64,000 nt of DNA from Candidatus Iainarchaeum sp. (GTDB taxonomy: Archaea > Iainarchaeota > Iainarchaeia > Iainarchaeales > UBA10191): the NCBI GenBank assembly GCA_030649735.1, contig JAUSFL010000035.1:1-64000 (forward strand), given 5' to 3'. Positions within the stretch are counted from its first letter, which is position 1. Every line of letters starts with the position of its first letter. The position numbers and the translations under genes were made by a program. This document shows positions 1,789 through 40,253 of the stretch, piece by piece. Below the pieces are notes generated by a model. That model ran no database searches and was not told the origin of the DNA. It worked only from the letters and a program-made list of their open reading frames with translations.

Positions 1789-2250
1789 ATGAGCATTTAC
1801 AATAAGGGCTTTGACTTTAATTTTAGCTTGGGCCGGGCAAAAACAATAATCATTGCCGGCCTGGTGGTATTGTTTGCTGTTTTTGCATTGTACACGTTGT
1901 ACAATTTGTTCACTCAAAGCCCTTTGGAAGTCAGGTTTGAGCAAAACCCTTGGAAGCAAGGCGAGCTGCAGTCAAACCTCTTGTTTGTCAAAGTCGCAAA
2001 CATTACTGGCAAGAATGTAAAGCTCGCTGTGCTTGAAGTCAGGCCGCGCGCTTTCAATTCAATCATAATTTTGCCTCACAACGCGAGAATTTCAGAGACT
2101 TTGGCGCCAAACGACAGCAGAATTTTGGCTTTTGACATTCGCAAGGCATTCCCGCAACAGGCCTTGCCTCCAGGAAAGTACACTATAGACCTCACTGTCT
2201 CTTTTGACGGGAAAGAGTATGTTTCAGAAACCGTGCTTGAAGTTGAGTAA
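1789..2250 (+). CDS. Membrane-anchored protein with Ig-like beta-sandwich domain
   Basis: N-terminal TM helix, beta-rich body with LAPND and PGKYTIDL patterns. Confidence 0.6.
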   Translation: MSIYNKGFDFNFSLGRAKTIIIAGLVVLFAVFALYTLYNLFTQSPLEVRFEQNPWKQGELQSNLLFVKVANITGKNVKLAVLEVRPRAFNSIIILPHNARISETLAPNDSRILAFDIRKAFPQQALPPGKYTIDLTVSFDGKEYVSETVLEVE

Positions 2251-2265
2251 GTTTCCAAAAATTCT

Positions 2266-3024
2266 TTAAAAAAGTATTCTGCCGGCTTTTTGCATGATTG
2301 GGCTGATTATTTCGTCGCCTTTCATTGTCCTGATGCGGACTTCTTCAATTCCTTGGATTTGCCTTGCAGTCTTCAAGAGCTTTTCATAGCTTGGTGAAGG
2401 GCAGCCTTCAACTTCTTTTCCCAGAGTTCCTTCGCTTCCAATGAATTGCTGCAGCACAAAGCGTTTTGCGCCTTTAAGCTGGCGTGAAAGCTCGAGCACG
2501 TCGCGGTGAGAGTGAAGAGCCGGAACAAAAGTCATCCTGAACTCGTAGTCATTGCAGTAGAATTTTGTGGCCTGAATGCTTCTCCACACTTCTTCAATGT
2601 TAACGCGCTTTCCAGTGATTTTAAAGTAGGAGTAATCGTTGATTTGGCTTTTCAAGTCTATTGAAACAAAGTCCACAAGGCCTTTTCCGAGGATTTCTTC
2701 AAGCAAGACGCTGTCAGAGCCGTTAGTGTCAAGCTTTACTTCAAAGCCTTCGGCTTTGAGCACTTGCAAGAATTCGACAAGCTTTTTTCCCTGCAGTAAT
2801 GGCTCTCCGCCAGAAATCACTACGGAATTCACTTCAGGAAAGCCGTTGAACAATTCCTGCAGTATTTTTTCTTGCGGGATTGTTTCCAAGTTTTCAGAAT
2901 CGGCAATTATTGAATGCGCGTAGCAGTACTTGCATTCGAAATTGCAGCCTGGAGCGTACACAACTGAACTTTTTCTTCCAGGCCATGCCGTAAGGCTTTG
3001 CGGAAAGAATGCCGCTATCTGCAT
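2266..3024 (-). CDS. nrdG: Anaerobic RNR activating radical SAM protein (second paralog)
   Basis: PGCNFECKYC, ISGGEPL, KLDTNGS, YEFRMT, LQQF; probable start MQIAAFF. Confidence 0.85.
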   Translation of the reverse strand: MQIAAFFPQSLTAWPGRKSSVVYAPGCNFECKYCYAHSIIADSENLETIPQEKILQELFNGFPEVNSVVISGGEPLLQGKKLVEFLQVLKAEGFEVKLDTNGSDSVLLEEILGKGLVDFVSIDLKSQINDYSYFKITGKRVNIEEVWRSIQATKFYCNDYEFRMTFVPALHSHRDVLELSRQLKGAKRFVLQQFIGSEGTLGKEVEGCPSPSYEKLLKTARQIQGIEEVRIRTMKGDEIISPIMQKAGRILF

Positions 3025-3101
3025 AGTAAAACCAACTCTCAAGCAATTAGAATGCAGGTTCTTTTTAAAAATCATTTCTTTGGGTGGTTTATTTTTAAAT
3101 G

Positions 3102-3803
3102 CTAGTCCAAATTCCTGAATTCGACTTTTTTGACTTTTTTTTCAAGGACTTTCTTGAATTTTTCAAAATCCGCCAGGGAAAATTTTCTCGCATTTCTCAA
3201 ACTGCTGTCAATTAAGGTGTCGACTGGAACAAACTGCTGCAAATAATAAATTTTTGCGCCTTCCAAAAGTTCTGCGATTTTTTCAAAGTCTTCTTCCTTG
3301 TGGAATTCAGGCAATAGCGTGGTGCGGAATTCATATTCAATTTTTGAGTTTTTCAAGAGCTCGATGCTTTTTCTGATTTTGTCCAGTGGCGCAAGAACTC
3401 CGCAAATCCTTTCATAATTTTCCAAAGGCCCCTTAATGTCCATTGCAACATAATCAACCAGTCTTTTTTCAATCAATTCCTCAAGCATTTCGGGGTTTGT
3501 TCCATTAGTGTCCAGTTTTACCAAATAACCTATGGCTTTCACTTTTTCCAAAAATTCGGGCAGGTCTTTCTGCAGTGTTGGCTCGCCGCCCGAGACAACA
3601 ACGCCTTCAAGCACTTTTTTCCTTAAAGCCAGAAAATCAAGGTATTCTTGCACTGGAACTTCGCCTAATTCTTCATCGTCATTCACAATGCCTGAATTAT
3701 AGCAGAACCCGCACTTGAAATTGCAGCCTGGAGTGAAGGCAGTGCTTGCAAGCCTGTCCGGAAAGTCAAGTAGTGTTGTTTTTTGAATGCCTTTGATTCG
3801 CAT
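3102..3803 (-). CDS. nrdG: Anaerobic ribonucleoside-triphosphate reductase activating protein
   Basis: TTLLDFP, GCNFKCGFCYN, SGGEPTLQ, KLDTNGT, AMDIK, YEFRTT. Confidence 0.93.
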   Translation of the reverse strand: MRIKGIQKTTLLDFPDRLASTAFTPGCNFKCGFCYNSGIVNDDEELGEVPVQEYLDFLALRKKVLEGVVVSGGEPTLQKDLPEFLEKVKAIGYLVKLDTNGTNPEMLEELIEKRLVDYVAMDIKGPLENYERICGVLAPLDKIRKSIELLKNSKIEYEFRTTLLPEFHKEEDFEKIAELLEGAKIYYLQQFVPVDTLIDSSLRNARKFSLADFEKFKKVLEKKVKKVEFRNLD

Positions 3804-3868
3804 AAAATACCATTAAAGAGAATATTGCTGAAACTTCTTTAAAGGGTTTGCAAGGCAACTGCCTTTTT

Positions 3869-4126
3869 CTAAAGCAGTCCTTTATGCCTGCATTCTTTTA
3901 TGAAGTCAAGCACTGCCGCATAATGCGTTTCTTCGTCATTTAGCTTGTATATTTTTTGAATTCTTCTTTTCCTAATTTCAAAAGACCGCAGCCAAATGGG
4001 ATTCTGCAATATTCTGCTTTGATAAAAGCCATCGCAAATTTGCCTGTTTTTTGCGGGATGGCCTGTCAAGCCAAGCGGGTGAGCCCTTAAAGCCTGCTTT
4101 TTTTGCGGTTTTCTGGCTTGCGGCAT
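3869..4126 (-). CDS. Small basic hypothetical protein
   Basis: ATG at 4126 (MPQARKPQKK...) fills the gap between neighbouring genes. Confidence 0.5.
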   Translation of the reverse strand: MPQARKPQKKQALRAHPLGLTGHPAKNRQICDGFYQSRILQNPIWLRSFEIRKRRIQKIYKLNDEETHYAAVLDFIKECRHKGLL

Positions 4127-4157
4127 AATTGTCAATAATTTGGCTTTAGAATGGCTT

Positions 4158-4841
4158 TTACTTGAATCTTCTGACAAACCTGTAAGGGCATTCGCAAGGC
4201 GCCTTGTGGCACACGTGGCAGTTGTTGAAGAAAAGCTTTGAAAGCTCTCCTGCAACGTCAACATTCAATGAATTGAAAACGCTCATTACTGTCGAGTAAT
4301 AGTCTGCTGCTTCCTTTACCGCGATTTCCAAATCGCAGTACCTTCTTTCTCCCCTGAAAGTCCAGACTGCTTCTGAAAGCTCTCCGAGCTCTTCAGCCAA
4401 ATGCAGGCCCGCGATTTCCAAAGTCCTTGCGCTTGCAGGATATATTTTGTTGAACATTTCCTGGAATTCGCGCATTGTTTTTGGTCTTTTGGATTCGTCA
4501 ATGATGACTTTCTTTCGCCCTTGCACTGCGTTTTTCTTGCACTCGCAAGGGGCTTTTCCGCAGTAAGAGCAAAGGTAAGGGAATCTTTGCCAGACTGCGT
4601 CTTCAACGTCAATGTGAAGCCTTGACATTGTGGAGCTGAACCAGCTTAATGAAATCAAGGCGTTTACTTTGGTTTTTTCCGCGTTTCCTTGGCGTATTCC
4701 TTTGATGCAGCGCATTGCGTGCCTTTGAATGTTGTTGAGCATTTCTGAAAGCTCGTAATCGCGGTCATTGGGCAGAAAATAGACTTCTTTCACGAATTCT
4801 TGAAAGTCATGAATGTTTCCGTTCTCTTGAAAACTTGCCAT
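4158..4841 (-). CDS. Tandem-domain MazG-like NTP pyrophosphatase with two CxxC-PCxC Zn-finger motifs (paralog B)
   Basis: HLAEELGELSEA...KEAADY MazG motif; CSYCGKAPCEC and CHVCHKAPCEC. Confidence 0.75.
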   Translation of the reverse strand: MASFQENGNIHDFQEFVKEVYFLPNDRDYELSEMLNNIQRHAMRCIKGIRQGNAEKTKVNALISLSWFSSTMSRLHIDVEDAVWQRFPYLCSYCGKAPCECKKNAVQGRKKVIIDESKRPKTMREFQEMFNKIYPASARTLEIAGLHLAEELGELSEAVWTFRGERRYCDLEIAVKEAADYYSTVMSVFNSLNVDVAGELSKLFFNNCHVCHKAPCECPYRFVRRFK

Positions 4842-4901
4842 TAAGACAGCCTCTTGCATTCTTTTTTTAAACGCTCTTAAAATCCCTGAGTTTCTCCAAT
4901 T

Positions 4902-5585
4902 TCATTTGAATCTTAAAACAAGCCTGTAATCGCATTCGCAAGGCGATTTATGGCATGCAAAACAGTTATTGTCGAAGTTTTTTGCCAATTCTTTAGCCAG
5001 GTCAGTATTTAATGAGTTGAATATTCCAAAGACTGTTGACAGGTAATCTGCGGTTTCTTTCATGATTGTTTCAAAATCGCTGTTGCGCCTTTCTCCCCTG
5101 AAAGCAAGGATTGCGTCAGAGAGCTCGCCAAATTCTTCAGCCAAGTGAATGCCTGCAATTTCAAGGCTTCTTGAAGCCGGGGGGTAAATTCTTTTGAACA
5201 TTTCCTGGAATTCATGCATTGTTTTAGGCCTTTTGCTTTCAATCACGTCAACTTTTCTCCTTCCGGGAATTGATTCTGCCTTGCAAGTGCATGAAATGTT
5301 TCCGCAGTAAGAGCACAAGTAAGGAAACCTTTGCCAAAGCGCGTCTTCAATGTCAATGTGAAGCCTTGTCGCCATTGAAGTGTACCAGCTTAAAGAGCGC
5401 AAAAAATTAAGCTTGGCTTTCTCAGGATTTCCCTGGCGTATTCCCTTAATCCCTAAAGTGACAAACCTGTGGACATTCGCGAGCATTTCAGCCAATTCAA
5501 ACCCGCGGTCGTTCGGGAGGTCGTAGACTTCGTTGATGAATTGCTGGAATTCTTTAATGCTTCCGTTTTCTGGAAAATTAGCCAT
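4902..5585 (-). CDS. Tandem-domain MazG-like NTP pyrophosphatase with two Zn-finger motifs (paralog A)
   Basis: HLAEEFGELSDA...KETADY; CSYCGNISCTC and CFACHKSPCEC; collinear with 4158..4841. Confidence 0.75.
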   Translation of the reverse strand: MANFPENGSIKEFQQFINEVYDLPNDRGFELAEMLANVHRFVTLGIKGIRQGNPEKAKLNFLRSLSWYTSMATRLHIDIEDALWQRFPYLCSYCGNISCTCKAESIPGRRKVDVIESKRPKTMHEFQEMFKRIYPPASRSLEIAGIHLAEEFGELSDAILAFRGERRNSDFETIMKETADYLSTVFGIFNSLNTDLAKELAKNFDNNCFACHKSPCECDYRLVLRFK

Positions 5586-5669
5586 TACAATTGCCTATTT
5601 AATTGTTTTTAAAAAGCCAAATATTAGTTTAAAAGGAATTTTTGGAAAGAAGAATGAAAGGCAGAATTT

Positions 5670-5816
5670 TCATTCTACCTTGTATGTTTTCCTGTCGCAG
5701 AATTCTTCTTTTTTTCCCGCATTCCAGTTCTGGATTGGCCTATAGTATCCGACAACTCGGGAATACACTTCTGTCTTTTCTCCGCATTCTATATTTCCTT
5801 CTTGTTCTTGTGTCAT
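5670..5816 (-). CDS. nrdD: Stand-alone glycyl-radical domain of class III RNR (48 aa; not in ORF track)
   Basis: Translated by hand: MTQEQEGNIECGEKTEVYSRVVGYYRPIQNWNAGKKEEFCDRKTYKVE*; SD GGAGGT 8 nt before the ATG. Confidence 0.92.
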   Translation of the reverse strand: MTQEQEGNIECGEKTEVYSRVVGYYRPIQNWNAGKKEEFCDRKTYKVE

Positions 5817-5817
5817 A

Positions 5818-7860
5818 TTATATTACCTCCAAGGCTCTCTCTTTAATCATATTGGTTTTGACGACTACAGGGCATGTTTCATGATTTCCCGCAACATAAC
5901 CGTGCGTTTTGCAAATGCTGAATGTAGGCGTTATTGTAAAGTACGGCAAGTGATAGTTTTCCGCAATTTTTCTGACGAGTTTTTTGCAGGCTGTCGGACT
6001 TGAAATTTTTTCCCCAATAAAGCCGTGCAGCACTGTTCCGCCAGTGTACTTGCATTGCAGTTCGTCCTGGTGGTCTAATGCTTCAAAAATGTCGTCAGTG
6101 TAATCAACAGGCAAGTGCGAGGAATTCGTGTAGTATGGCGCGTTTTTTCCGGCCTGCAAAATGCCTGAAAGGTTTTTTTGGTCATGCCTTGCAAACCTGT
6201 ATGACGTTCCTTCTCCAGGAGTTGCTTCCAAATTGTACATGTGGCCTGTTTCTGCCTGGAATTCCTGCAGTCTTTCGCGCATGAAGTCCAAAACCCTGAG
6301 TGCAAAGGCCTTTCCTTCAGGAGTCTGGATTCCGCTGTCAGGCCCTAAAAAATTCAGGCAAGCCTCATGCATTCCATTCAATCCAATTGTTGCAAAGTGA
6401 TTGTTCAAAGTACCCAAGTATCTTCGCGTGTAAGGCAATAATCCTTGGTCCATGTTTTTTTGAACTTCTTTCCTTTTGATTTCAAGGCTTTCTTTTGCCA
6501 GAATCATCAGCCTTTCAAGCCTTGCAAAGAATTCTTTCTCGCTTTTTCCCTTGCTCAAGAAAGCCAAGCGAGGCATGTTTATTGTAACGACTCCAACGCT
6601 TCCAGTTGACTCTCCGGCCCCAAACAATCCGCCAGTCTTGCTTTTGAGCTTTCTCAGTTCATTCAAGTCAAGCTGCAGCCTGCAGCACATTGAGCGCACG
6701 TCATGCGGTTTTAATGAACTGTTGATGAAGTTTTGAAAGTATGGAATTCCGTACTTTGCGGTCATTTCAAAAAGCAATTCCGCATTTTCTGAATCCCAAT
6801 TAAAGTCTTTGGTTAAGTTGTAGGTTGGGATTGGGAATGAAAAAGTCCTTCCGTCAGCGTCTCCCTTAATCATCATGTCCAGGAAAGCCCTATTTATCAA
6901 GTCCATTTCATCCTGGAAGTCGCTGTAAGTCTGGTCTTGCAATTTTCCTTTAATGATTACTGGCATGTCTTTCATGTCTTCTGGAACAGTCCAGTCCAAT
7001 GTAATGTTTGTGAAAGGCGGCTGATTGCCCCAGCGGGAAGTCTGGTTGACGCTGTAAACAAACTCTTGCAGGCCTTGCTTTACTTCCTCGTAAGACAATC
7101 CTTCCTTCCAAATGAACGGGGCAAGATAAGTGTCAAAGCTTGAGATTGCCTGCGCTCCAGCCCATTCATTCTGCAAAGTTCCAAAAAAATTCACTAGCTG
7201 TCCTACTACTGCATGCATGTGTCCTGCCGGGCCTGCAGCAATTCTTCCAGAAACTCCCCTGAATCCTTCAGTGAGCAATTGCCTGAAAGACCATCCTGCA
7301 CAATAGGCCGCGAAAACCCCGTGGCTTAAGTCATGAATGTGCAAGTCCGCGCTCCTGTGCGCGTCAGAAATTTCTTTTGGGTAAATGTTATTCAAAGTGT
7401 ATTCTGCGACAATGTTTCCTGAAATGTGCGCCTGCAGGCCGGTCATTGAGTAAGTTTCGTTCGCGTTTTCTTTCACGCGCCAGTCAGTTCCAATCAAGTA
7501 GCCGTCAATTATTCCCTCGGCTTTTCTCAAAAAGCTTTTCGTGTCCCTTAACTGCCTTCTTTGCTCCCTGTAAAGAATGAAAGTCTTTGCAGTGTCTGCG
7601 TATCCTTCCTTGATTAGGATTCTTTCAACAATGTCCTGGATTTCTTCAACAGTCGGGTTGGTGTTTCCAAATCTTTCCTTCAACTGCTGGACTATTTTGT
7701 CAGTCAATTCTTCAGCAATCCAACGGTCTTTTCCACCGACTGCCTGTGCTGCGGCAAAAATTGCATTGGTGACTTTTTCACGGTCAAACCTTGTTGTACG
7801 GCCGTCTCTTTTAATCACGCAGTCAAAATACTTTTTTGCCTCTTGCATCTCTCTCAACAC
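5818..7860 (-). CDS. nrdD: Class III anaerobic ribonucleoside-triphosphate reductase, catalytic subunit with ATP-cone, lacking the glycyl-radical domain
   Basis: VIKRDG ATP cone, HIHDL, YCAGWS, RSMCCRL, EATPGE, YTGGTV, CKTHGY...CP. Confidence 0.95.
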   Translation of the reverse strand: MLREMQEAKKYFDCVIKRDGRTTRFDREKVTNAIFAAAQAVGGKDRWIAEELTDKIVQQLKERFGNTNPTVEEIQDIVERILIKEGYADTAKTFILYREQRRQLRDTKSFLRKAEGIIDGYLIGTDWRVKENANETYSMTGLQAHISGNIVAEYTLNNIYPKEISDAHRSADLHIHDLSHGVFAAYCAGWSFRQLLTEGFRGVSGRIAAGPAGHMHAVVGQLVNFFGTLQNEWAGAQAISSFDTYLAPFIWKEGLSYEEVKQGLQEFVYSVNQTSRWGNQPPFTNITLDWTVPEDMKDMPVIIKGKLQDQTYSDFQDEMDLINRAFLDMMIKGDADGRTFSFPIPTYNLTKDFNWDSENAELLFEMTAKYGIPYFQNFINSSLKPHDVRSMCCRLQLDLNELRKLKSKTGGLFGAGESTGSVGVVTINMPRLAFLSKGKSEKEFFARLERLMILAKESLEIKRKEVQKNMDQGLLPYTRRYLGTLNNHFATIGLNGMHEACLNFLGPDSGIQTPEGKAFALRVLDFMRERLQEFQAETGHMYNLEATPGEGTSYRFARHDQKNLSGILQAGKNAPYYTNSSHLPVDYTDDIFEALDHQDELQCKYTGGTVLHGFIGEKISSPTACKKLVRKIAENYHLPYFTITPTFSICKTHGYVAGNHETCPVVVKTNMIKERALEVI

Positions 7861-8065
7861 CTTTTTTCAATGACTAAAACTCCCATTCAAAAAGAGAACA
7901 ATTTTTTTCTTTCGAAAATTGTAAAGTATTACTAAGCGAAACTTCTTTAAAAAACTTTCCAAAAAAAACAAAAACCGAAAAAATACCCCGCAAATCAGTT
8001 TGCAAACCAGAGTCTAATCTTCGTTTTGTTCACTTTCCAAATTTAAGTTGGTTTCGTCAAAAGCC

Positions 8066-8350
8066 TTAAAATTTTATTGAAAATTCTTCCATCTGGTTTT
8101 TCTTTGAAGAAAACTTTTTTTCAATCCTTTCCACTCTCGCAAACCCGGCATCCTGCTCTAAAATTTCCAGCAGTGAAAGCAATTCTTTCTTTTCTCCAAA
8201 AGCCTCTAATTCCACAGTCCCGTCCCCGCAATTCTTGACCCATCCGGCAAGTCCCAGTCTTCGTGCGTTTTGCCTTACAAACGCCCTGAATCCAACGCCT
8301 TGCACTCTTCCAAAAGCCTTTGCGAAAACGCAGTTTTCATTATTGCTCAA
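8066..8350 (-). CDS. acyP: Acylphosphatase
   Basis: GRVQGVGFR and GWVKN motifs. Confidence 0.93.
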   Translation of the reverse strand: MSNNENCVFAKAFGRVQGVGFRAFVRQNARRLGLAGWVKNCGDGTVELEAFGEKKELLSLLEILEQDAGFARVERIEKKFSSKKNQMEEFSIKF

Positions 8351-8796
8351 GCTTTCGCCTTCAATTCCTTCAATTTTTCCTCAAGCTCTTCAAGCGAGCT
8401 TACTATTTCAACGCAAGAGTTTGAAATCATCAGGTTCAATTGCTTTTTTTGGTCAAAAATCCTGCTGTCATTCAAAAACCCTATTATTGGAATTCCTTTA
8501 GAATACAAATAACCAATCTCAAAGGCAGTTCCTGAATCAACATCCAGCCCATCAAGCAATGCAACGCAAGCACTGCAGGAATCCATTGCCTTCAAGTCTT
8601 TTTCAAAAAAAGGCCTTGGGGGACAGTCTCTTTTGAAGACTCCGGCGTTCTTGTGCGGCAAATAAGCAATAAAGCCCCCTCCTTCTTCTTCTCCTCCTCT
8701 TCCGGCCTTTTCGCAAACAGCGCCGATTTCTTCAATGTGCTTTCTATGGTATTCAGTGAACAATGGCCCGGCTACATAAACGATTGGCTTTTCCAT
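8347..8796 (-). CDS. Nucleoside 2-deoxyribosyltransferase family protein
   Basis: VYVAGPLF, YLPH, D...DSGTAFEIG, LNLM motifs. Confidence 0.85.
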   Translation of the reverse strand: MEKPIVYVAGPLFTEYHRKHIEEIGAVCEKAGRGGEEEGGGFIAYLPHKNAGVFKRDCPPRPFFEKDLKAMDSCSACVALLDGLDVDSGTAFEIGYLYSKGIPIIGFLNDSRIFDQKKQLNLMISNSCVEIVSSLEELEEKLKELKAKA

Positions 8797-8851
8797 AACT
8801 TGTCTTGTACCTGTTTGTTTTTTTAATTCTTTCCAGCCTTCAATAATGCAC

Positions 8852-9439
8852 ATGCTTAAAGAGATCAGGATTCACGGCCGGGGAGGCCAAGGCGTTGTCA
8901 CAAGCAGCGAGCTTTTGGCAATTGCGGCCTTTAATGACGGAAAGCAATCCCAGGCTTTTCCTAATTTTGGGGTTGAAAGAAGCGGCGCGCCGATTTCAGC
9001 ATTCACCAGAATAAGCAATGAAAAAATTAATTTGCGCCAGCAAATTTACGAGCCTGATTATGTGATTGTTTTAGACTCAAGCCTGCTTTCAACTGTCGAA
9101 GTCACCAAAGGGCTGAAAAACAACGGCCTTTTGATAATAAATTCTGACAAAAAGCCAGAAGAGCTCGGCTTGAAAACAAATGCCAGAATGGTTTCTTTTG
9201 ATGTTTCAAAAAAAGCAATTGAAATTTTGGGAAAGCCATTGGTTAATGTTGCAGTGCTTGGGGCTTTTGCAGCGCTGACAAAAGAAATAACGCTTCCTTC
9301 ATTGCTTAATGCAATAGACCAAGAGTTTGAAAGCAAGAAAGAAATTGCTGAAAAGAACAAAAAGCTTGCGGAAATACTTTACAAAGAAAACATTGCGGTC
9401 GAGAAAGAAAAATCAAGGGCTGGCAAAAATGGCAAATGA
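8852..9439 (+). CDS. porC: Pyruvate/2-oxoacid:ferredoxin oxidoreductase gamma subunit
   Basis: EIRIHGRGGQGVVT, FGVERSGAP. Confidence 0.93.
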   Translation: MLKEIRIHGRGGQGVVTSSELLAIAAFNDGKQSQAFPNFGVERSGAPISAFTRISNEKINLRQQIYEPDYVIVLDSSLLSTVEVTKGLKNNGLLIINSDKKPEELGLKTNARMVSFDVSKKAIEILGKPLVNVAVLGAFAALTKEITLPSLLNAIDQEFESKKEIAEKNKKLAEILYKENIAVEKEKSRAGKNGK

Positions 9440-9707
9440 AAAAAAGAAACTGCCGGTCGGCGCTGTCATTTCAGCAGCTGGAAGCTCTGTTAAGAACAAG
9501 ACTGGCGGCTGGCGCTCTTTCAAGCCAGTGATTGACCAGAAAAAATGTAACAAGTGCAAGCTGTGCTGGATTTACTGCCCTGACAATGCAGTCAAGGTTT
9601 TGAAGGACGGAAGCGTGGAAATTGATTACAATTATTGCAAAGGCTGCAGCATTTGCGCCAACGAGTGCAAAGCCAAGGCCATTACAATGGAACTCGAGAA
9701 AAAGTAA
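9429..9707 (+). CDS. porD: Pyruvate:ferredoxin oxidoreductase delta subunit (2x4Fe-4S)
   Basis: KTGGWRSFKP, CNKCKLCWIYCP, YCKGCSICANEC. Confidence 0.93.
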   Translation: MANEKKKLPVGAVISAAGSSVKNKTGGWRSFKPVIDQKKCNKCKLCWIYCPDNAVKVLKDGSVEIDYNYCKGCSICANECKAKAITMELEKK

Positions 9708-9725
9708 AACGCGGGGTGGTTTTGA

Positions 9726-9956
9726 ATGGTTATTAAAAGCTCTCAGGAAGTCTTTAACGAAAACCTTGTGAAAGGCGAAGAACTGGCAAAAAAACAGGCT
9801 GAAAAGTCAAAAAAAATCAGGGAATTGCGCGAGCAATTAAACCTGGCAATAACTAAAGCAGGCTTTTCGCAGTCAGAGTCTGAAAAATCAAGGTATTCTT
9901 CCCAAGCGCAAGGCCTAAAGCGCCAGATTGACATGCTTCAAAGCATGAGCAAGTGA
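9726..9956 (+). CDS. Small coiled-coil hypothetical protein
   Basis: SD GGGGTGG upstream; operon-like spacing. Confidence 0.6.
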   Translation: MVIKSSQEVFNENLVKGEELAKKQAEKSKKIRELREQLNLAITKAGFSQSESEKSRYSSQAQGLKRQIDMLQSMSK

Positions 9957-10366
9957 TTCAAATGAAAAAAGAAACCATGATTCTTGCAATTTTGATTGGA
10001 AGCATGGTTGCATTAAGCGGATGCATTGAAGCGCTTTTTTCTTCAGGCATATATAATACTCCAGCGAACTGCACTCAATTTGGCGGCAGATTATTGCTTA
10101 AAGATTATTCTATGGCTCAAAATTCAATAAAATTGACAGTGCAGAATGGAAGCTCTGGAGAAATCAGTTCAATAAAAGCTAAGGCTTCAGGATTTGCCGC
10201 GAGAATAAATGGAGTTGAAGACTTGGATTCGCTGCCAAGGTCTGACAATGCTGAAATTGTTTTTTCGGGAAACACTGAAAAGGGAAAGTCTTACTCATTA
10301 ATTGTCAGCTACTCCAGCAATGGGATAAATCATGAAGAAACCACGACTTGCACTGTTGCAAAGTAA
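9953..10366 (+). CDS. Putative lipoprotein/secreted protein
   Basis: MKK-hydrophobic-LSGC lipobox-like N-terminus. Confidence 0.6.
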   Translation: MIQMKKETMILAILIGSMVALSGCIEALFSSGIYNTPANCTQFGGRLLLKDYSMAQNSIKLTVQNGSSGEISSIKAKASGFAARINGVEDLDSLPRSDNAEIVFSGNTEKGKSYSLIVSYSSNGINHEETTTCTVAK

Positions 10367-10375
10367 GGCTTGATT

Positions 10376-10681
10376 ATGGAATTCATTTACATAACCTGCA
10401 AAAATCCAAAAGAGGCAGAAAAAATAGCAACAGCCCTGCTTTCAAAAAAACTCATTGGCTGCGCAAACATCCTTCCGTCAGTTTCACTTTACCATTGGAA
10501 GAAAAAGCTCAAAAAGAGAAAAGAAAGCATTTTGATTTGCAAAACTTTTGGGGAAAAATTCTCTGAAATCGAGCGCGTTGTGAAAAAGCTTCACTCTTAC
10601 GAAATTCCATTGATTGCTTCACTCGATGTCGAAGATGTCAATCCAGAATTCAACAAATGGCTTGAGAAAGAAATCCGCTAA
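10376..10681 (+). CDS. cutA: Divalent-cation tolerance protein CutA
   Basis: YITC, GCANI, SLYHW, LHSYEIP. Confidence 0.92.
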   Translation: MEFIYITCKNPKEAEKIATALLSKKLIGCANILPSVSLYHWKKKLKKRKESILICKTFGEKFSEIERVVKKLHSYEIPLIASLDVEDVNPEFNKWLEKEIR

Positions 10682-11415
10682 TTTTCCTTCAATATTATTA
10701 TATTTCCCCTGCCTTTCTTGATTTTCTTCACTTTTCCCTCGCTTTCCAATTCTGCAATCACAAGGCTCAAGTAAGCCTCTCCAAAATGCACTTTCTCCAA
10801 AAGCTCTTTTTGAGTCGCCCTGTTTCCCCTCTCGCGCAATGCCTGCAAGACTTCTTCAGCATTCTTATCCAAGACTTTCGGCTTTGCCTTTGGCGCGCTT
10901 TCTCCAACAGTGCCTGAAACAGTTCCTGCCTTTTGGCCGCTGTTTTTCCAAAAGACCCAAATCATTACAATAATCAACAAAGCCAGTATTCCAGCAAGCA
11001 AAAACCATGAATTGTCCTTTTCGGCAGGCGGCAGTTCTGACTGGTTGACGTCAAAGTTTTCCAATTGATTTCCCAAAAGCTCTTGCTCCAAGTTTTCATC
11101 ATTGGCTGCCGGAAGCATTATCAAATCCAGCCGGTAATTTCCTTCCTTATTTATCCTGATTTTTTCTGAAGATTCCAGGACAAGCATTGAGTTCTCAAAA
11201 TACTTTGCCCTGATTTCAAAATCTCCAAAAGGAAGCTCAAAAGAGTAATTCGCGTCTTTTGAAACAATCTGCTGGCCCGGGGTTGAATTTACTGAAACAA
11301 TCGCGTCTTTTAACAGCTCAAAAGTTTCAGCATTGTAAATGCTTCCAGAAATTGTCGCGCTGCTCGCAAAGCCGGCCGCAAGCATTAAGGCAAAAAGCAA
11401 TAATTTCAGTTCCAT
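10678..11415 (-). CDS. Membrane-spanning regulator: extracellular beta domain, TM helix, C-terminal winged HTH
   Basis: Signal peptide, central TM, TQKEL...LSLVIAELESEGKVKKIKKGRGNII. Confidence 0.75.
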   Translation of the reverse strand: MELKLLLFALMLAAGFASSATISGSIYNAETFELLKDAIVSVNSTPGQQIVSKDANYSFELPFGDFEIRAKYFENSMLVLESSEKIRINKEGNYRLDLIMLPAANDENLEQELLGNQLENFDVNQSELPPAEKDNSWFLLAGILALLIIVMIWVFWKNSGQKAGTVSGTVGESAPKAKPKVLDKNAEEVLQALRERGNRATQKELLEKVHFGEAYLSLVIAELESEGKVKKIKKGRGNIIILKEN

Positions 11416-11611
11416 CAATTAAAACATTGCGGAAAAATGGTTTTAAAACTTTACTAAAGCTTTTCTTTCAAGGAAAGCTACTGGCTTTCCCCCCAATTCG
11501 CCAAAAACCCATTATTTGGGCTTGCTTTTTTTTAGTGAAGAATTGTTTTAAACAACCTGCAATGTTTCTTATTCAACGAACACGCGATTCTGAAAGGAGG
11601 ATTGGTTTCTT

Positions 11612-12523
11612 ATGAAAGCAAACAAAGCAATTATAGTGCTTGCAGCACTCTTGATTTTGCTTTCCTTTAGCGCTTTTGCAATTGCAGAGCCGCAAAAGGA
11701 AAACTTGAGGGAAAAAATCCAGCAAAAAATAGAGAATGCCAAGCAAAATTTTGAAAAGGCGCAAGAGCGCTTTGAAAAGCAAAAAGACAAGTTTGAGGAC
11801 GCCAAAACAAAATGGGTGTCTTTTAAGACTGACTGGCAGTCAGGAAAAAACAAGGACAAGAACAGGCTTTATAATGGCGCAAAAAACTACATTGTGAATG
11901 CCACTGAACGCATGGAAAATTATTTGGAAGTCACAAAAAGAAGGGCGCAAAACATTCAAGACCTGCCTGAAGCAGACTTGAATAGCATTGTGGCGCAAAT
12001 TGACGCTGAAGCCGCAAAATTGGCCTTGTTGAAATCAAAAGTCAATGACGCAAATTCTAATGAGGCAATCAAGGCATTGGTTCCTGAAGTGAATGCGGAG
12101 TGGGATTTAGTAAAGGCTTTTTCCAAGAAAATCACTGGATTGATTTTGTCGGCAAACACGCAAAAAGCAATTGACGCCGCAGAAAAAATCAGCCAAAAAG
12201 CGCAGGACAAAATCAATGAATTGGACGCAAACTCAACAGCAGACTTGAACGCCGCAAAAGCAAGGCTTGCACAATACCAAGCTGACATTAACCTTGCAAT
12301 CCAAAAAAAGCAGGCAGCTGTGGCAAAGTTTCTGCAAATAACAGACTCAAACAACGCGCAGCCGTTGTTCAAGGAAGGCCAAGACTTGCTAAAAGAAGCG
12401 CACAAGGAATTGAGGAATGCGGCGCAAGACTTGAAGGACATAATAAGGGACATTGTGAAGGCTAACAGGCCTGAAAGGCCAAAAGACAGCAATTCAGTCC
12501 GCGACCAGAACGAGCAGGATTAA
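11612..12523 (+). CDS. Secreted alpha-helical/coiled-coil protein
   Basis: Signal peptide ending AFA; K/E/A-rich heptads. Confidence 0.7.
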   Translation: MKANKAIIVLAALLILLSFSAFAIAEPQKENLREKIQQKIENAKQNFEKAQERFEKQKDKFEDAKTKWVSFKTDWQSGKNKDKNRLYNGAKNYIVNATERMENYLEVTKRRAQNIQDLPEADLNSIVAQIDAEAAKLALLKSKVNDANSNEAIKALVPEVNAEWDLVKAFSKKITGLILSANTQKAIDAAEKISQKAQDKINELDANSTADLNAAKARLAQYQADINLAIQKKQAAVAKFLQITDSNNAQPLFKEGQDLLKEAHKELRNAAQDLKDIIRDIVKANRPERPKDSNSVRDQNEQD

Positions 12524-12535
12524 GGAGTTGATTGA

Positions 12536-12886
12536 ATGAAAAAACCAATTCTCTTGATTTTTGGAATCCTGGCTTTTGCAGTATTGCTTTCAGGCTGTTC
12601 TCAAGACCAGCCAAAGCAGCAAAGCGGCTTGGAATCTGACAGCACTGCATTGGACAGCACTTTAAACAGCGCTGACCAGCAGCTTAATGATCCCGGCACT
12701 GACTTGACCGGCATTGTTCCAGTCGATTTGCCTGCTGATGCCGGCATTGCTTCAACCACTGCGCTTGAAGCAGATGCCGCTTCGCTTTCAGCAGACGCAT
12801 CAAGCCTTGACTCATTAAGCACAGAGCTTTCAGACTTTTTAACCCTTGATTCAGTCCAGGCAATTAATCCGGCAGATTTGCAATAA
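12536..12886 (+). CDS. Acidic low-complexity lipoprotein
   Basis: MKK...LLSGC lipobox; D/S/L/A-rich. Confidence 0.65.
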   Translation: MKKPILLIFGILAFAVLLSGCSQDQPKQQSGLESDSTALDSTLNSADQQLNDPGTDLTGIVPVDLPADAGIASTTALEADAASLSADASSLDSLSTELSDFLTLDSVQAINPADLQ

Positions 12887-12993
12887 TGCCAAAGTACGGC
12901 AATGCTTTGATATTCATCAAAAGGCAACTTTTGATGAAAAATCTGCTTTTTTTCCTTCTTTTTTAAAAACTCCAATTGCGTTAGAATAATCAT

Positions 12994-13785
12994 ATGTTCA
13001 AGGCATTGGAAAAGTATTCCGGAGTTTTCAAGATAGAATTAATTGACTTTTTCCAAAGCAAATGGGACGTGATTTTCGGCTTTCTTTTCCTTGGAATAGT
13101 GATTTTTGTATTCTACCAGCTTTGGGCATTGGGTTTTGCGCAAAAGGCAATTCCAGGATACTCGCTTGCAAAACTGGTTTTTTACGTTGCAATTGCAGAA
13201 AGCGTCACGATTTCAACAATCAGGATTTACAAAATCATTGATGACGACTTGAAAAAAGGCCTTTTGACAAATTACCTTTCAAAGCCGGTCAATTATGTCT
13301 TCTTTCAGTTCTCGCGCGCCTTGGGAAAAAGCGCAATCACTTTATTCATCAATCTTGCATTGACTCTTGCATTCTGTTTTTTGCTTTTCGGCTTTTTTCC
13401 ATTCTCTCTCTTGGAATTTGCGGCAGTTATTTTTGCGAGCATTTTTTGCCTTTGCCTTTTGGTTCTTGTCGGGGTTTTTTTCGGGCTTTTGGGATTTTAC
13501 ACTGAAGACAGCTCCGCATTCTATTTTGTTTACAGCAAGGCAATCTACATTTTCGGCGGCCTTGTTTTCCCATTAGACCTTTACCCGCAGTGGCTTAAGT
13601 CAATCTCGGACTTTTTGCCATTCAAGTGGGCTGTTTTTGCCGCTGGAAAGCTTGCAATTTCCTTTTCCACTGACTTTTTTATCGAGGTTTTGCTGATGCA
13701 ATTGTTCTGGATTGCAGTGTTTGCCGGGCTTTGCCTTTTTGTTTTTTCAAGGATTTCAAGGAAGGTTTTCATCAATGGCGGTTGA
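12994..13785 (+). CDS. ABC-2 family transporter permease (DUF990-type)
   Basis: Multiple TM helices, LSKPV, GGLVFPLDLYP, C-terminal NGG. Confidence 0.85.
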   Translation: MFKALEKYSGVFKIELIDFFQSKWDVIFGFLFLGIVIFVFYQLWALGFAQKAIPGYSLAKLVFYVAIAESVTISTIRIYKIIDDDLKKGLLTNYLSKPVNYVFFQFSRALGKSAITLFINLALTLAFCFLLFGFFPFSLLEFAAVIFASIFCLCLLVLVGVFFGLLGFYTEDSSAFYFVYSKAIYIFGGLVFPLDLYPQWLKSISDFLPFKWAVFAAGKLAISFSTDFFIEVLLMQLFWIAVFAGLCLFVFSRISRKVFINGG

Positions 13786-37266: not shown

Positions 37267-37342
37267 AATTAACAGTTAAAAATTGTCGTTAAATCAATAA
37301 AAACCTTTGTTCGCCAACTGTCCAGCCAGTTGGCATCTGGGA

Positions 37343-37376
37343 ATGTGCGCTATCTTGCGATAGCGCGGTAATGCTT
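37343..37376. repeat. Palindromic repeat copy 1
   Basis: ATGTGCGCTATC-ttgc-GATAGCGCGGTAATGCTT. Confidence 0.8.
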
Positions 37377-37435
37377 AATTCAATAAAAACCTTTCCGCAC
37401 TCTACTTGTAAATAAGTTCTAGAATGAGATCTTTT

Positions 37436-37509
37436 GGGGCTGTAGTCTAGCTTGGTTAGGACCTATGCTTTGGGAGCATAAAACCACGGTTCAAATCCGT
37501 GCAGCCCCA
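37436..37509 (+). tRNA. tRNA-Pro(TGG)
   Basis: GGGGCTG/CAGCCCC acceptor stem, TATGC-TTTGGGA-GCATA anticodon arm, GGTTCAAATCC T-arm; CCA not encoded. Confidence 0.95.
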
Positions 37510-37536
37510 AACCGCCCAGCCGGTTTATGTCTGGGC

Positions 37537-37570
37537 ATGTGCGCTATCTAAAGACAGCGCGGTAATGCTT
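37537..37570. repeat. Palindromic repeat copy 2
   Basis: ATGTGCGCTATC-taaa-GACAGCGCGGTAATGCTT. Confidence 0.8.
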
Positions 37571-37590
37571 TCGATCGCGCGTGCCAAAGT

Positions 37591-37622
37591 ATGTGCGCTA
37601 TTTTTGATAGTGCGGTAATACT
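37591..37622. repeat. Palindromic repeat copy 3
   Basis: ATGTGCGCTATT-ttt-GATAGTGCGGTAATACT. Confidence 0.75.
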
Positions 37623-37640
37623 ATTCTAATTTTTTGACTG

Positions 37641-39209
37641 TTAGTTTTCGGCAAGCTTGCCGAATTTCCAAAAGTCAAATTCTGAAGGAAAGCAGGAATT
37701 TTTTCCGGAAAATCCTTCACTGCGCTGTTTTTTCTCCAAAACAAGGCTTTTCATGATTTCCTCTTTTTCACTGGCGCTTTTTCCATTAAGGTCTTTTCCA
37801 AATTCCTTGAAAATAATGCAATTGCTTGCCTGGCCTGTGGGATTGACCCTGATTTTCCTGCATTTTTTCGGGTCGCATTCAAAGTCTATCGAGTATTGCG
37901 GCAAAATTCCAAAAACCACTTTGTTTTCCATTATTTCAAAATACTCGCTTTTTGGGTTGTCGCCCTTGAAAAAAACAGGCCTGATTTGCCCGAATTCTTT
38001 CCTGACTGCCTCGACTGCCTTTCTGACTGGCACGTATTCTTTCTTGACGAATTGCGCGTCTTTTTCAAAACCGCCTGGAATTAGCTCCAAAAACCGTACG
38101 GCAATCTTGCAGTTTCTATTGCGTTCAGACAATTCCTTTATGAAATTAATTATTTTTGGAATTTCCTGCAAGTTTTGCTTTGAGAGCACAAAATGAATTT
38201 TGACTGTCTCAAAGAATTCTGCGGCCTTTTCTATTGACTGCAAAACTTGCGGCAGGAAATCAAAGCCGGTGATTTGCGCAAATTTTTCCCTGTCTAAAGT
38301 GTCCAGGCTTATGTTGGCGCGGCTGATTCCGCAGTTTTGCAATGCTTCAGCATTTCTAAAAAGCGTTGTCCCGTTTGTTGAAATGCACTGTTCTGAAAAC
38401 CCGAGCTCTTTTGCTTTTTTTGTGAGCTGTAAAAAACCTTGATTTATTGTGGGCTCGCCGCCAGTCCATCTGACTCGCTTGATTCCGGAATTTTTTGCAG
38501 CCTGCAGTATTTCAATGATTTCTTCATTGCTTATTTTTGGCATTCTTTCCTGGTTGTTTTCCCTCTTGCAGTAGTTGCAGTTCAAATTGCATTCCCTTAA
38601 GGAAATTTCAAGCATGAAATCATTGATTTTTCCGATTTCTTCAACGACTTTCTTGAATTCTTCATTCTTTGTCCCATCAAGCTCAAAGCCCGCTTTTTGC
38701 TTTAATGGCTCAATGTGCAAGTCGTGCATTGGACGCACGTGCTCTTCAAGCCGTTTGCGCACTTTCTCTTGCGAAATATTCCTTTCAATGCAGTCTCTTT
38801 TAATGCGCCTTGCAAATCTTTCAGCCTCGGGCGCGTTGACAAAAAACTTCAAGTCCATTTCCTTGTTCAATTCATTGTCGTGCAGTGCGAGAATTCCCTC
38901 AAAAATTATTATCTCGGCGGAATGGATCTTTTCAAAGCCAGTCCTTCCGTTCTCGTACTCGTAAATTGGGGCCCTAAAATCCCTGCTGTTTTTCAGGCTG
39001 GCAATGCAGTTTTTGATTAATTCCCAGTCAAAGGATTCCGGGCAGTCAAAATTCTTTTCGCCATTGAATTCTGGAATTTCAGAATGGCTTTTGTAAAACC
39101 TGTCCTGGCTTAAAATCAGCGCGTTCTTTCCAAGATTCTCGGCGGCCTTTCTCGCAATTGTTGTTTTTCCAGAAGCAGAACCCCCGGCAATCCCAACAAC
39201 CAGCACCAT
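37641..39209 (-). CDS. Fusion of uridine kinase (N-terminal) and MoaA-like radical SAM/twitch domain (C-terminal)
   Basis: GIAGGSASGKT, QDRFY, NFDCP, EGIL, RRIKRD, VRPMH; then CNLNCNYC, RWTGGEP, TNG, NISLDTL, C..C...R......C. Confidence 0.88.
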   Translation of the reverse strand: MVLVVGIAGGSASGKTTIARKAAENLGKNALILSQDRFYKSHSEIPEFNGEKNFDCPESFDWELIKNCIASLKNSRDFRAPIYEYENGRTGFEKIHSAEIIIFEGILALHDNELNKEMDLKFFVNAPEAERFARRIKRDCIERNISQEKVRKRLEEHVRPMHDLHIEPLKQKAGFELDGTKNEEFKKVVEEIGKINDFMLEISLRECNLNCNYCKRENNQERMPKISNEEIIEILQAAKNSGIKRVRWTGGEPTINQGFLQLTKKAKELGFSEQCISTNGTTLFRNAEALQNCGISRANISLDTLDREKFAQITGFDFLPQVLQSIEKAAEFFETVKIHFVLSKQNLQEIPKIINFIKELSERNRNCKIAVRFLELIPGGFEKDAQFVKKEYVPVRKAVEAVRKEFGQIRPVFFKGDNPKSEYFEIMENKVVFGILPQYSIDFECDPKKCRKIRVNPTGQASNCIIFKEFGKDLNGKSASEKEEIMKSLVLEKKQRSEGFSGKNSCFPSEFDFWKFGKLAEN

Positions 39210-39230
39210 CAAACCACCTTGGCAGTTTTC

Positions 39231-39311
39231 CTATTTTTTCCAGTTTTTCAGCAGAAAATCCCAAATTTTGTCGTCTGCCGCGTGAACCAAATTATTGAGC
39301 AGTTTTTTCAA
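39231..39311 (-). CDS. Putative 26-aa peptide (MKKLLNNLVHAADDKIWDFLLKNWKK)
   Basis: TTG start preceded by SD AGGTGA; stop about 20 nt before the fusion gene. Confidence 0.45.
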   Translation of the reverse strand: MKKLLNNLVHAADDKIWDFLLKNWKK

Positions 39312-39331
39312 GCCGCTCACCTTTGGAATTG

Positions 39332-39386
39332 ATAGTGTTTTATTTTTGTTAAGCAATCCTGCAAAAAAACACCCTATAGTGTTTTA
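39332..39386. promoter_or_regulatory. Candidate operator in divergent promoter
   Basis: ATAGTGTTTTA twice (39332, 39376); AAAACAC-N6-GTGTTTT inverted repeat at 39366-39385. Confidence 0.5.
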
Positions 39387-39410
39387 ATTTCTTGCGTTCA
39401 CATTGGGATT

Positions 39411-40253
39411 GTGCTTTCAAAGGAATTGCAGGAAAAGATACTCAAGCTTGTGAAAAAAGAGCCTTGCCTGGTGCAGGACATTTCTCGGCACATTGGAAAA
39501 AGCTGGGTTGCGACTGAAGGCTATGTTGAAAGAATCTCGAAAGACACTGGCTTGATTAGGACAAAGGCATTCCGCAAGGGAACCAAAGGCGCTGTCAAGG
39601 TTGTTTACTGGAATTATTCTGAAAGCGTCCAGGATGACGAGGTCAAGGAAAGGCTTTTTCAGAGAATAAAGCTGTTTTCAAGCAAGAAAGAATTTGATCC
39701 CTTGGAAATCTTCCAGTTTGCCAAGGACAAACGCTCTAATGCGACTGTGGAGTTCAAGAGCAAAAGGCTTTCAAGCAAGCACCATAAAAACTTCCTTTCA
39801 TTCCTGAAAAAGGCGGATTCTGAATTATTGTGCTTTTCAGGAAACATTTCCTGGATTAGCATCAAGGAAGGAAACGAAAGCGCCTTAAGAATAATTGAGG
39901 AATTCCTGAAAAAGCGCGGAGTCTTGAAAATACTCTGCAGGATTGACATTGCCTCAATGAAAAACATCCGCTTGCTCGAGCCCTTGATGAAAAAATTTCC
40001 AGGCCAGGTTGAAGTAAGGCATTCAAGCCAGCCAGTGCGCGGCTTCATAATGGATTCCAAAATTGCGCGCTTCAAGGACGAGAAAAAAATTTCAGACTTC
40101 AAGGAAGGCGAATTGTCAGAAGACCTGTACTTGTTTTATGAATTGTTTGACATTGACTGGGTCGAGTGGTGCAAGAATGTTTTCTGGTACTTGTTCCGGA
40201 ATTCAATAGGGCTTCAGGAACGGGTCAAAGTGCTTGACAGGCTGGTTTTCTAG
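39411..40253 (+). CDS. Putative transcriptional regulator, N-terminal winged HTH plus TrmB/PLD-like sensor domain
   Basis: ILKLV...VQDISRHIGKSW HTH; LKILCR...VEVRH...RGFIMD pattern. Confidence 0.65.
   Translation: MLSKELQEKILKLVKKEPCLVQDISRHIGKSWVATEGYVERISKDTGLIRTKAFRKGTKGAVKVVYWNYSESVQDDEVKERLFQRIKLFSSKKEFDPLEIFQFAKDKRSNATVEFKSKRLSSKHHKNFLSFLKKADSELLCFSGNISWISIKEGNESALRIIEEFLKKRGVLKILCRIDIASMKNIRLLEPLMKKFPGQVEVRHSSQPVRGFIMDSKIARFKDEKKISDFKEGELSEDLYLFYELFDIDWVEWCKNVFWYLFRNSIGLQERVKVLDRLVF

Follow-up and report, generated by a model that had tools for sequence, protein, structure and literature searches.

Fusion of a uridine kinase-type domain to a radical-SAM protein of a MoaA-like family in Candidatus Iainarchaeum, a possible nucleotide-modifying enzyme

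The GTP 3',8-cyclase MoaA, an enzyme of molybdenum cofactor (Moco) synthesis, is usually treated as having a single function, and its relatives from tiny genomes are often automatically annotated as MoaA. Its residue Arg17 stabilises 3',8-cyclisation. Arg17, Arg266 and Arg268 of MoaA are described as essential, with only Lys tolerated in place of Arg17 (PMC9026282; 10.1101/2020.01.16.909697); Arg17 contacts guanine N7 and the 3'-OH, and the C-terminal GG motif is not conserved in archaeal MoaA (PMC9026282). Nucleotide kinases and a triphosphatase/cyclase domain frequently occur with viperins, either linked or fused (10.1101/2023.09.13.557418). Here we describe a gene from a 64,000-nucleotide stretch (the window) of contig JAUSFL010000035.1 of Candidatus Iainarchaeum sp., a small archaeon from groundwater (GenBank assembly GCA_030649735.1), which joins a uridine kinase (Udk)-type domain to a radical S-adenosylmethionine (SAM) domain of the MoaA fold. 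Our preferred proposal, held with somewhat better than even confidence, is that the fusion protein is a bifunctional accessory enzyme that modifies nucleotides outside Moco synthesis. No published account of such a family or fusion was found in the literature searched, part of which was covered by title and abstract.

The minus-strand open reading frame 37641..39212 encodes 523 amino acids if the TTG start of the frame listing is counted; translation from the ATG at 39209, immediately 5' of which lies an AGGTGG-like motif, gives 522 amino acids and no internal stops. This confirmed the proposal of an earlier, sequence-only reading of the window that a single frame joins a complete Udk-type kinase to a radical-SAM domain. 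Pfam profiles matched PRK/uridine kinase at residues 4-174 (E 2.7e-28, 99.6 bits, gathering threshold 22) and Radical_SAM at residues 205-357 (E 1.6e-26), with Mob_synth_C at residues 370-489 reaching 31.6 bits, under its cut-off of 37.4. The top NCBIfam families were MoaA and uridine kinase, both below cut-off, and the closest solved structures by sequence were Thermus uridine kinase (E 6.6e-31) and Staphylococcus aureus MoaA (E 8.7e-19). The gene and its parts are as follows.

37641..39209, minus strand: coding sequence of the Udk-radical SAM fusion, 522 amino acids, stop codon at 37641-37643 (Pfam/NCBIfam matches; bridged by independent contigs)
38640..39209, minus strand: Udk-type nucleoside kinase domain, residues 1-190 (PRK 99.6 bits; 3W8R, E 6.6e-31; invariant columns kept)
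39162-39185, 39093-39110 and 38793-38810, minus strand: kinase motifs, respectively P-loop, QD motif and RRIKRD
38607..38609, minus strand: codon of Glu201, which corresponds to Arg17 of MoaA and to the Arg of the family motif 'LRIS'
38139..38597, minus strand: radical-SAM core, residues 205-357, with CX3CX2C at 38568-38591
37818..37877, minus strand: auxiliary-cluster (twitch) segment C445-x4-C450-R-K-I-R-x9-C464 (alignments; Mob_synth_C 370-489)
37659..37679, minus strand: family-specific tail F-D-F-W-K-F-G ([RK] in 38/38 rows, F and G each in 35/38)

Whether the fusion could be an assembly artefact was checked against contigs assembled independently of the window. A contig of 19,653 bases from run X1, which may be the source sample, spans 37482-39500 with 10 differences and no gaps; the independent support comes from run X2 of a different study, whose contig of 2,530 bases spans 37567-38997 with 92 differences (about 6% divergence), also without gaps. 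Because the domain junction near 38640 is spanned without indels by both contigs, one from each of two studies, the fusion gene is real and not an artefact. The 33 X2 differences listed inside the coding sequence fall mainly at third codon positions (25, against 6 at first and 2 at second positions), a pattern expected under purifying selection on the frame; the two intact catalytic modules share one selected polypeptide. Of the differences between the X1 contig and the window, 9 are packed into the 37 bases 38403-38439, with almost none elsewhere; they alter three residues (P0002 compared with P0001) and suggest a strain patch or local recombination.

The kinase half resembles Udk of Thermus thermophilus (3W8R/3ASY) and human UCK2 in its P-loop, QD Asp, RRxKRD motif, other invariant columns and length. 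In an alignment with 13 Udk homologues it retained 18 of 18 invariant columns, including the P-loop and the QD Asp, and it reaches the last Udk helix. It is unlike these enzymes in having NFDCP for NFDHP, in being joined directly, with no linker, to the strand that opens the radical-SAM half, and in scoring below the NCBIfam uridine-kinase equivalog cut-offs (161.7 against 180 and 147.7 against 220.3 bits). The closest stand-alone relative is P0126 (49% identity). Udk lies outside the core gene set of the lineage, PF00485 being found in 6 of 60 relatives of the window genome and in none of three from the same family. By family analogy, the kinase half would make the 5'-monophosphate of a ribonucleoside, for example uridine or cytidine.

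Two [4Fe-4S] cluster sites were located in the radical-SAM half. The SAM-cluster cysteines are C207, C211 and C214 (CX3CX2C), and C445, C450 and C464 aligned to the auxiliary triad of MoaA, with a spacing of Cx4Cx13C compared with Cx2Cx13C in MoaA. Within the C-R-K-I-R segment, Lys452 occupies the MoaA Arg266 site and Arg454 the Arg268 site. The protein ends in ...FWKFGKLAEN, with no terminal GG. An AlphaFold2 model of the radical-SAM domain (predicted local distance difference test score 90.8) had MoaA (2FB2/1TV7) as its top PDB fold match, with a template modelling (TM) score of 0.74-0.76 over 328-330 columns. Viperin matches gave TM 0.49-0.58, and the twitch/SPASM enzymes BlsE, AbmM and DesII, which act on nucleoside- or nucleotide-linked sugars, were among the next-best matches behind MoaA (TM 0.53-0.55). 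The domain is therefore like MoaA/MOCS1A (S. aureus 1TV7, 1TV8, 2FB3) in fold, CX3CX2C motif, three-Cys auxiliary cluster, functional C-terminal tail region, Arg268 equivalent and basic character at 266; it is unlike MoaA in its Glu at the Arg17 site, Cx4C for Cx2C, W-[RK]-F-G tail for GG and N-terminal kinase. A Pfam scan identified no RNA-binding domain in the fusion protein.

Three departures from MoaA had been listed from the letters, and all three are present, with unequal weight. The Arg17 site is occupied by Glu201 in the MAFFT alignment and by Met in the HMMER alignment to 1TV7, neither of them basic; in the motif 'LEIS' of the fusion protein, Glu201 stands where relatives carry the Arg of 'LRIS', and every one of the GG-tail (87) and Thermococcales-type (20) MoaA rows has an Arg at -7 from the first Cys. 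This replacement alone is diagnostic. Lys at the Arg266 site is not, because 50 of the 87 GG-tail MoaA-type rows carry Lys there, and the absence of GG is weak evidence because archaeal MoaA does not conserve it: Thermococcales-type MoaA tails read EPYW[KRV], not GG, in 20 of 20 rows.

The window protein missed the MoaA equivalogs (TIGR02666, 166.9 against 284.05 bits; TIGR02668, 155.1 against 325.25; NF001199, 148.1 against 231). Grouping inside true MoaA was examined with a tree of 77 rows, 49 of them from the family and 24 GG-tail or Thermococcales-type MoaA, viperin and NikJ/PolH not being among the rows. All 49 rows with the W-[RK]-F-G tail, the window protein included, fell on one side of a branch supported at 100/99 in the careful tree and by a Shimodaira-Hasegawa-like approximate likelihood ratio test value of 99 in the quick tree, and that side held none of the 24 MoaA rows. 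A profile built from 38 members of the family retrieved 43 proteins at 319 bits or more, followed by two fragments and then by MoaAs at no more than 253 bits; the window protein scored 394 bits. In the window genome (G000; 1.28 Mb, 92.7% complete), Pfam profiles gave no match to MoaC (PF01967), MoaE (PF02391) or MogA/MoeA-type MoCF_biosynth (PF00994), and none to the candidate client enzymes, molybdopterin oxidoreductase (PF00384) or AOR (PF01314; AFOR_C). MoaC was found in none of the 5 other family-bearing genomes, and hence in none of the 6 family genomes tested. Because of the sub-cut-off scores, the separate clade, the Glu at the Arg17 site and a genome with neither Moco genes nor clients, we conclude that the radical-SAM half does not serve Moco synthesis and that no Moco role seems possible for it; on sequence grounds it is not MoaA and belongs to a distinct, uncharacterised family with the MoaA fold. 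The same four lines of evidence bear out the sequence-only reading in its expectation of a product other than the Moco precursor. Its description as a 'repurposed MoaA' is better replaced by membership of a distinct, older MoaA-like family, in which the Arg is still kept by 34 of 38 members.

The window protein carries the traits of this family, namely membership of the clade, WTGGEPT, the Cys triad, Arg at the 268 site and the W-[RK]-F-G tail. DPANN archaea and Patescibacteria are its main hosts, and it is also present in Actinomycetes. The named members belong to Micrarchaeia, Patescibacteria, Roizmanbacteria, Nanoarchaeota and the cultured Paenibacillus sp. 19GGS1-52, and the loci within genomes to Micrarchaeota, Aenigmatarchaeota and Actinomycetes. 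One member is annotated 'GTP 3',8-cyclase MoaA [Nanoarchaeota archaeon]' and several as 'cyclic pyranopterin phosphate synthase'. Distribution is sparse: no orthologue was found among 60 relatives of the window genome, the phylum sample had the family in 2 of 215 genomes (G000, and G145 with two copies in tandem), and a Micrarchaeota-centred sample in 3 of 401, all three already known. Among the 38 rows of the family alignment, the Arg268 site is R in all 38, the Arg17 site R in 34 and the Arg266 site K in 28 and R in 3. The first Arg is missing from four rows, those of the window protein, its sister P0122 (Val), P0125 and P0130; in the last two, most of the Cys triad has gone as well. P0122, on a metagenome contig (locus L121), is 45% identical to the window protein (support 99/90) and unfused. 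The tandem members of G145 (locus L134, G145:C30, 2298-4321) are of different subtypes, with tails ...ERWG... and ...FWRFG... and overlapping stop and start; the pair is divergent from a class II aminoacyl-tRNA synthetase gene.

Extra domains were found in 6 of the 49 family rows:

Window protein: Udk
P0127 (Patescibacteria): archaeal-type AdoMet synthetase
P0129: NUDIX
P0154: dual-specificity-phosphatase-like domain (DSPc), 29.1 bits, under the Pfam gathering threshold of 33.5
P0147: nucleoside diphosphate kinase (NDK) and HD
P0012: pyridoxal phosphate (PLP) decarboxylase

A broad search for the architecture found the Udk fusion solely in the window protein (the only one in the best 150 of 1.84 billion representatives, and one of 43 family proteins), with the other nucleotide-enzyme fusions in the same clade; among proteins of 649-2000 amino acids, P0127 was the only clear family member. 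Nine family loci were read, a set outside which the loci of P0125, P0130, P0129, P0147, P0154 and P0012 lie. Two of them, from Actinomycetes (L156, JAEWEI010000153.1, 2089-10586; L157, JAFAEH010000227.1), share genes for the radical-SAM protein, a dehydroquinate (DHQ)-synthase-like protein and a nitroreductase. L156 additionally has NTP_transf_5 (an uncharacterised nucleotidyltransferase) upstream, PPK2 and, further upstream, an ABC transporter, giving the operon order NTP_transf_5, radical-SAM, DHQ-synthase-like, PPK2, nitroreductase, with overlapping stops and starts; the operon looks like a biosynthetic gene cluster. As nucleotide kinases and phosphohydrolases recur across unrelated branches, the family probably modifies free nucleotides. 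The suggested link to nucleotide kinases thus stands as a tie to free nucleotides, through the NDK-HD, NUDIX, phosphatase-like and SAM synthetase fusions and the PPK2 operon; the proposed pyrimidine substrate, channelling and antiviral role that had accompanied it go further than this tie.

From these features we infer a substrate class, a chemistry and a physiological role along the following lines. The Udk domain would produce a nucleoside monophosphate, and the CX3CX2C cluster would cleave SAM to a 5'-deoxyadenosyl radical. This radical would take a ribose hydrogen from a free nucleotide held at the auxiliary cluster by Lys452 and Arg454, while the W-[RK]-F-G tail might seal the active site in the way supposed for the MoaA tail. 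Since Arg17 is replaced by Glu and the genome has neither Moco pathway nor client, the product would be a modified nucleotide other than the Moco precursor, and the loss of an Arg that contacts guanine N7 and the 3'-OH would imply either a different base or a different fate of the radical. Most simply, the kinase would have been fused to feed or retain the nucleotide substrate, by the same logic as viperin with CMPK2. NikJ and PolH, which act on a derivative of uridine monophosphate and work with a phosphatase, may be functionally similar; no enolpyruvyl transferase or other gene of their pathways lies near the window gene.

Several observations weigh against this proposal. The fusion kinase has Gly/Asn aligned with the His/Tyr residue that governs base preference in the Udk enzymes studied. 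Udk makes monophosphates and both MoaA and viperin use triphosphates, so 'feeding' would need further kinases, and tblastn with the NDK domain of P0147 found no NDK in the window genome. The singleton Udk fusion could be a neutral accident, and the erosion of MoaA features in the closest lineages could mean relaxed constraint instead of a new specificity. The main argument against a single simple story comes from gene neighbourhoods that do not point to free nucleotides: 4 of the 9 loci (L094, L095, L096, L134) have a class II aminoacyl-tRNA synthetase gene within two genes, and 2 of the 9 lie beside SPASM radical-SAM genes, two of which follow the family gene in L094 and one of which adjoins it in L096.

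In a narrower form of the proposal, which we think unlikely, the kinase would raise the pyrimidine nucleotide pool and the radical-SAM half would make a chain-terminating or antimetabolite analogue in a viperin-like defence. This would accord with the viperin-kinase precedent (10.1101/2023.09.13.557418) and with an occurrence as rare and patchy as that of defence genes (2/215 and 3/401 genomes), the gene being missing at the syntenic site of a genome of the same genus. A second, independent fusion, joining a MoaA-like radical-SAM domain and an AdkA-like kinase in three genomes from the same order (followed by a CYTH gene in G021 and G102, with MoaC in none of the three), and type IIG restriction genes at most four genes away at two related loci (L094, L096) also fit. 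However, the PADLOC viperin models matched the generic radical-SAM core only (65.6 bits, residues 205-361), the NCBIfam viperin model NF038283 gave 48.7 bits against a cut-off of 180, and the immediate neighbours of the window gene had no PADLOC match, the genes around it being housekeeping. No family member was found on viral contigs, where 19 weak radical-SAM matches reached at best 28% identity over most of the query, or on phages and plasmids, which gave ordinary MoaA-type matches only, below 40% identity. The likeness to viperin (RSAD2) and to prokaryotic viperins with CMPK2-type kinases, fusions of the two included (10.1101/2023.09.13.557418), would lie in a radical-SAM enzyme for nucleotide ribose coupled to a kinase of the nucleotide pathway (here fused, its substrate predicted) and in a patchy accessory spread; the differences are a similarity confined to the core, the MoaA-type auxiliary-cluster domain of the window protein, and a kinase of the Udk/PRK type, from nucleoside to nucleoside monophosphate (NMP), instead of an NMP kinase. 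A defence-island context was also considered and set aside, PADLOC on 40 neighbouring proteins having given only the type IIG restriction matches of L094/L096 and helicase-type matches, which are weak. Extended to the whole family, the W-[RK]-F-G proteins might be a new class of nucleotide-modifying radical-SAM enzymes, a counterpart of viperin on the MoaA scaffold with which DPANN archaea, Patescibacteria and some Actinomycetes make an undescribed antiviral or antimetabolite nucleotide, the Udk fusion, with Glu for the purine-contacting Arg17, being a pyrimidine-switched branch with its own kinase; this we regard as doubtful.

The remaining readings depart further from free nucleotide chemistry or from function altogether. 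The partners in other loci raise a step in a small-molecule, cofactor or peptide pathway, for example towards a carbocyclic or aminocyclitol product or a maturation shared with SPASM partners: besides the SPASM neighbours of L094 and L096, there are the DHQ-synthase-like sugar-phosphate cyclase and nitroreductase of the Actinomycetes, the ABC transporter of L156 and the PLP-decarboxylase fusion. Yet none of these partners lies near the window gene or at L121, the SPASM genes of the window genome are 23-28% identical to those partners and on other contigs, and the only added part in the window protein is a nucleoside kinase, which makes this reading decidedly unlikely. Quite improbable, in our view, is a tRNA modification, with a tRNA nucleotide as the substrate of the radical-SAM half and the fused kinase incidental. 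The synthetase genes near 4 of the 9 loci and the tRNA-Pro gene that abuts the 3' end in the window and at L121 would suit it, but the synthetases differ (Thr, Ser and others), L094 and L096 are related and so overstate independence, and synthetases are common in small genomes; moreover, the NDK, NUDIX, HD and SAM synthetase fusions and the PPK2 operon point to free nucleotides, a housekeeping modification would not be so rare, and the Pfam scan showed no RNA-binding domain. A true or near-true GTP 3',8-cyclase, serving Moco synthesis hidden by an incomplete assembly or making cyclic dihydro-GTP as an end product, is very improbable: MoaA gives the best match by family, PDB and fold, and the protein retains the Cys triad, Arg268 and basic character at 266 (the family keeps its three basic residues in 34, 31 and 38 of 38 rows), whereas the Glu at the Arg17 site, the sub-cut-off scores, the separate clade, the lack of any Moco gene or client and the absence of MoaC from the other five genomes oppose it. 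We give hardly any credence to the idea that the fusion is decaying or neutral and has no function of its own. Its singleton architecture, the lost conserved Arg, sisters without auxiliary cysteines and its absence from the closest genome are what decay would leave, but 522 codons are open, the kinase and cluster motifs are intact, and the strain diverged by about 6% is free of indels with 25 of 33 differences at third positions.

If the product of the proposed nucleotide-modifying enzyme is a nucleotide analogue, the viperin principle would gain a second scaffold and reach symbiotic archaea and bacteria, in which defences and metabolite exchange are poorly known. If it is not, the family still flags a systematic annotation error, since the proteins separated here cannot, as judged above, serve Moco synthesis, their hosts lack a Moco pathway, and fusions to enzymes that act on nucleotide phosphates or make SAM have arisen repeatedly. 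The fusion protein, P0122, the NDK-HD, NUDIX and phosphatase fusions and the cultured Paenibacillus member form a panel in which new radical chemistry on nucleotides may be sought.

The neighbours of the window gene are housekeeping genes (enolase, tRNA-Pro, arginine decarboxylase). Three further features adjoin it.

39411..40253, plus strand: ORF280, divergent neighbour, conserved beside P0122 (53% identity); possible helix-turn-helix (HTH) regulator
37435..37510, plus strand: tRNA-Pro(UGG) gene, convergent with the fusion gene at the 3' end of the latter; tRNA-Pro(CGG) is placed likewise beside P0122
37316..37622, plus strand: hairpin repeat flanking tRNA-Pro in three local copies (37316-37376, 37510-37570 and 37591-37604 onward)

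ORF280 had no Pfam, NCBIfam or PADLOC match; it is similar to hypothetical Nanobdellota proteins, and leads towards an HTH regulator score 0.90. The repeat hairpin reads GCGCTATC...GATAGCGC, its first two copies being 80% identical over 61 nt, and its 34-nt core has no further copies in the genome with up to 6 mismatches allowed. Many metagenome contigs end at this tRNA-Pro. At L121, the order is a 294-amino-acid gene (53% identical to ORF280), P0122 and, on the opposite strand, tRNA-Pro(CGG). Because this unfused relative shares the ORF280, radical-SAM and tRNA-Pro setting, gene order and similarity indicate that P0122 is the unfused orthologue and that Udk was added at the 5' end of a resident gene in the window lineage. 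In the same-genus genome G001, an ORF280 homologue (73% identical over 85 residues, at a contig end) lies about 470 bases from tRNA-Pro, which is followed by ORF233 and enolase, with no radical-SAM or Udk gene at the syntenic site. This arrangement had suggested a gene island inserted at tRNA-Pro, an idea dropped because the ORF280, radical-SAM and tRNA-Pro order of the window recurs at L121; loss in G001 with late addition of Udk is the simpler account. A CTP synthase gene beside P0122, considered as a pyrimidine link, was downgraded as an opposite-strand tRNA gene lies between. A radical-SAM substitute for ribonucleotide reductase was likewise rejected, since the window itself encodes the class III reductase NrdD (577.5 bits); class I/II ribonucleotide reductase was not found. 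The NrdD match (window 5682-7860, minus strand) is split, with profile positions 1-526 at 5866-7470 and 519-562 in a 50-amino-acid frame at 5682-5810, and its glycyl-radical end may be frameshifted off or separately encoded.

Related loci yielded further observations. At L002 (CAYMAH010000023.1, titled Micrarchaeota, 528-5794), the family gene is followed on the same strand by dxr-ispG-ispD-NUDIX-ispF; such a run of methylerythritol phosphate pathway genes on an archaeon-binned contig is unexpected if archaea make isoprenoids by way of mevalonate, and may reflect binning or gene transfer. The second fusion, found in the same archaeal order as the window genome, consists of a MoaA-like radical-SAM domain with an AdkA-like/UPF0200 P-loop kinase C-terminal to it (proteins of 498-537 amino acids), at these loci:

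L137 (G021:C11), 2340-4374
L136 (G102:C20), 1647-3684
L135 (G118:C15), 7243-8856

A CYTH gene follows it in G021 and G102, and a divergent gene for a protein of 416-421 amino acids with a terminal ArsR-type HTH is present in all three; MoaC is absent from all three genomes (G021, G102, G118). The position of the G021-type fusion was unstable in trees, since it grouped with archaeal MoaA in the quick tree (92) but fell beside the outgroup in the careful one, which carried a long-branch warning. Elsewhere in the window genome (L120, G000:C44:47000-63000), a gene for a weak PRK-like kinase adjoins DUF362 at 5824-13660, divergent from radical-SAM/SPASM genes of 447 and 450 amino acids that are followed by class III aminotransferase, inositol-monophosphatase-family, CDP-alcohol phosphatidyltransferase and PEMT-like genes; the cluster looks like a lipid head-group or aminocyclitol pathway. 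The same locus encodes, at 1145-2230, a 361-amino-acid frame with a Cas12f1-like TNB domain, a TnpB/Cas12f-type protein. In another genome of the same order (L147, G045:C21, 1177-3528), a protein of 783 amino acids combines a long multi-pass membrane region with a C-terminal PRK/Udk-like kinase domain (112.6 bits).

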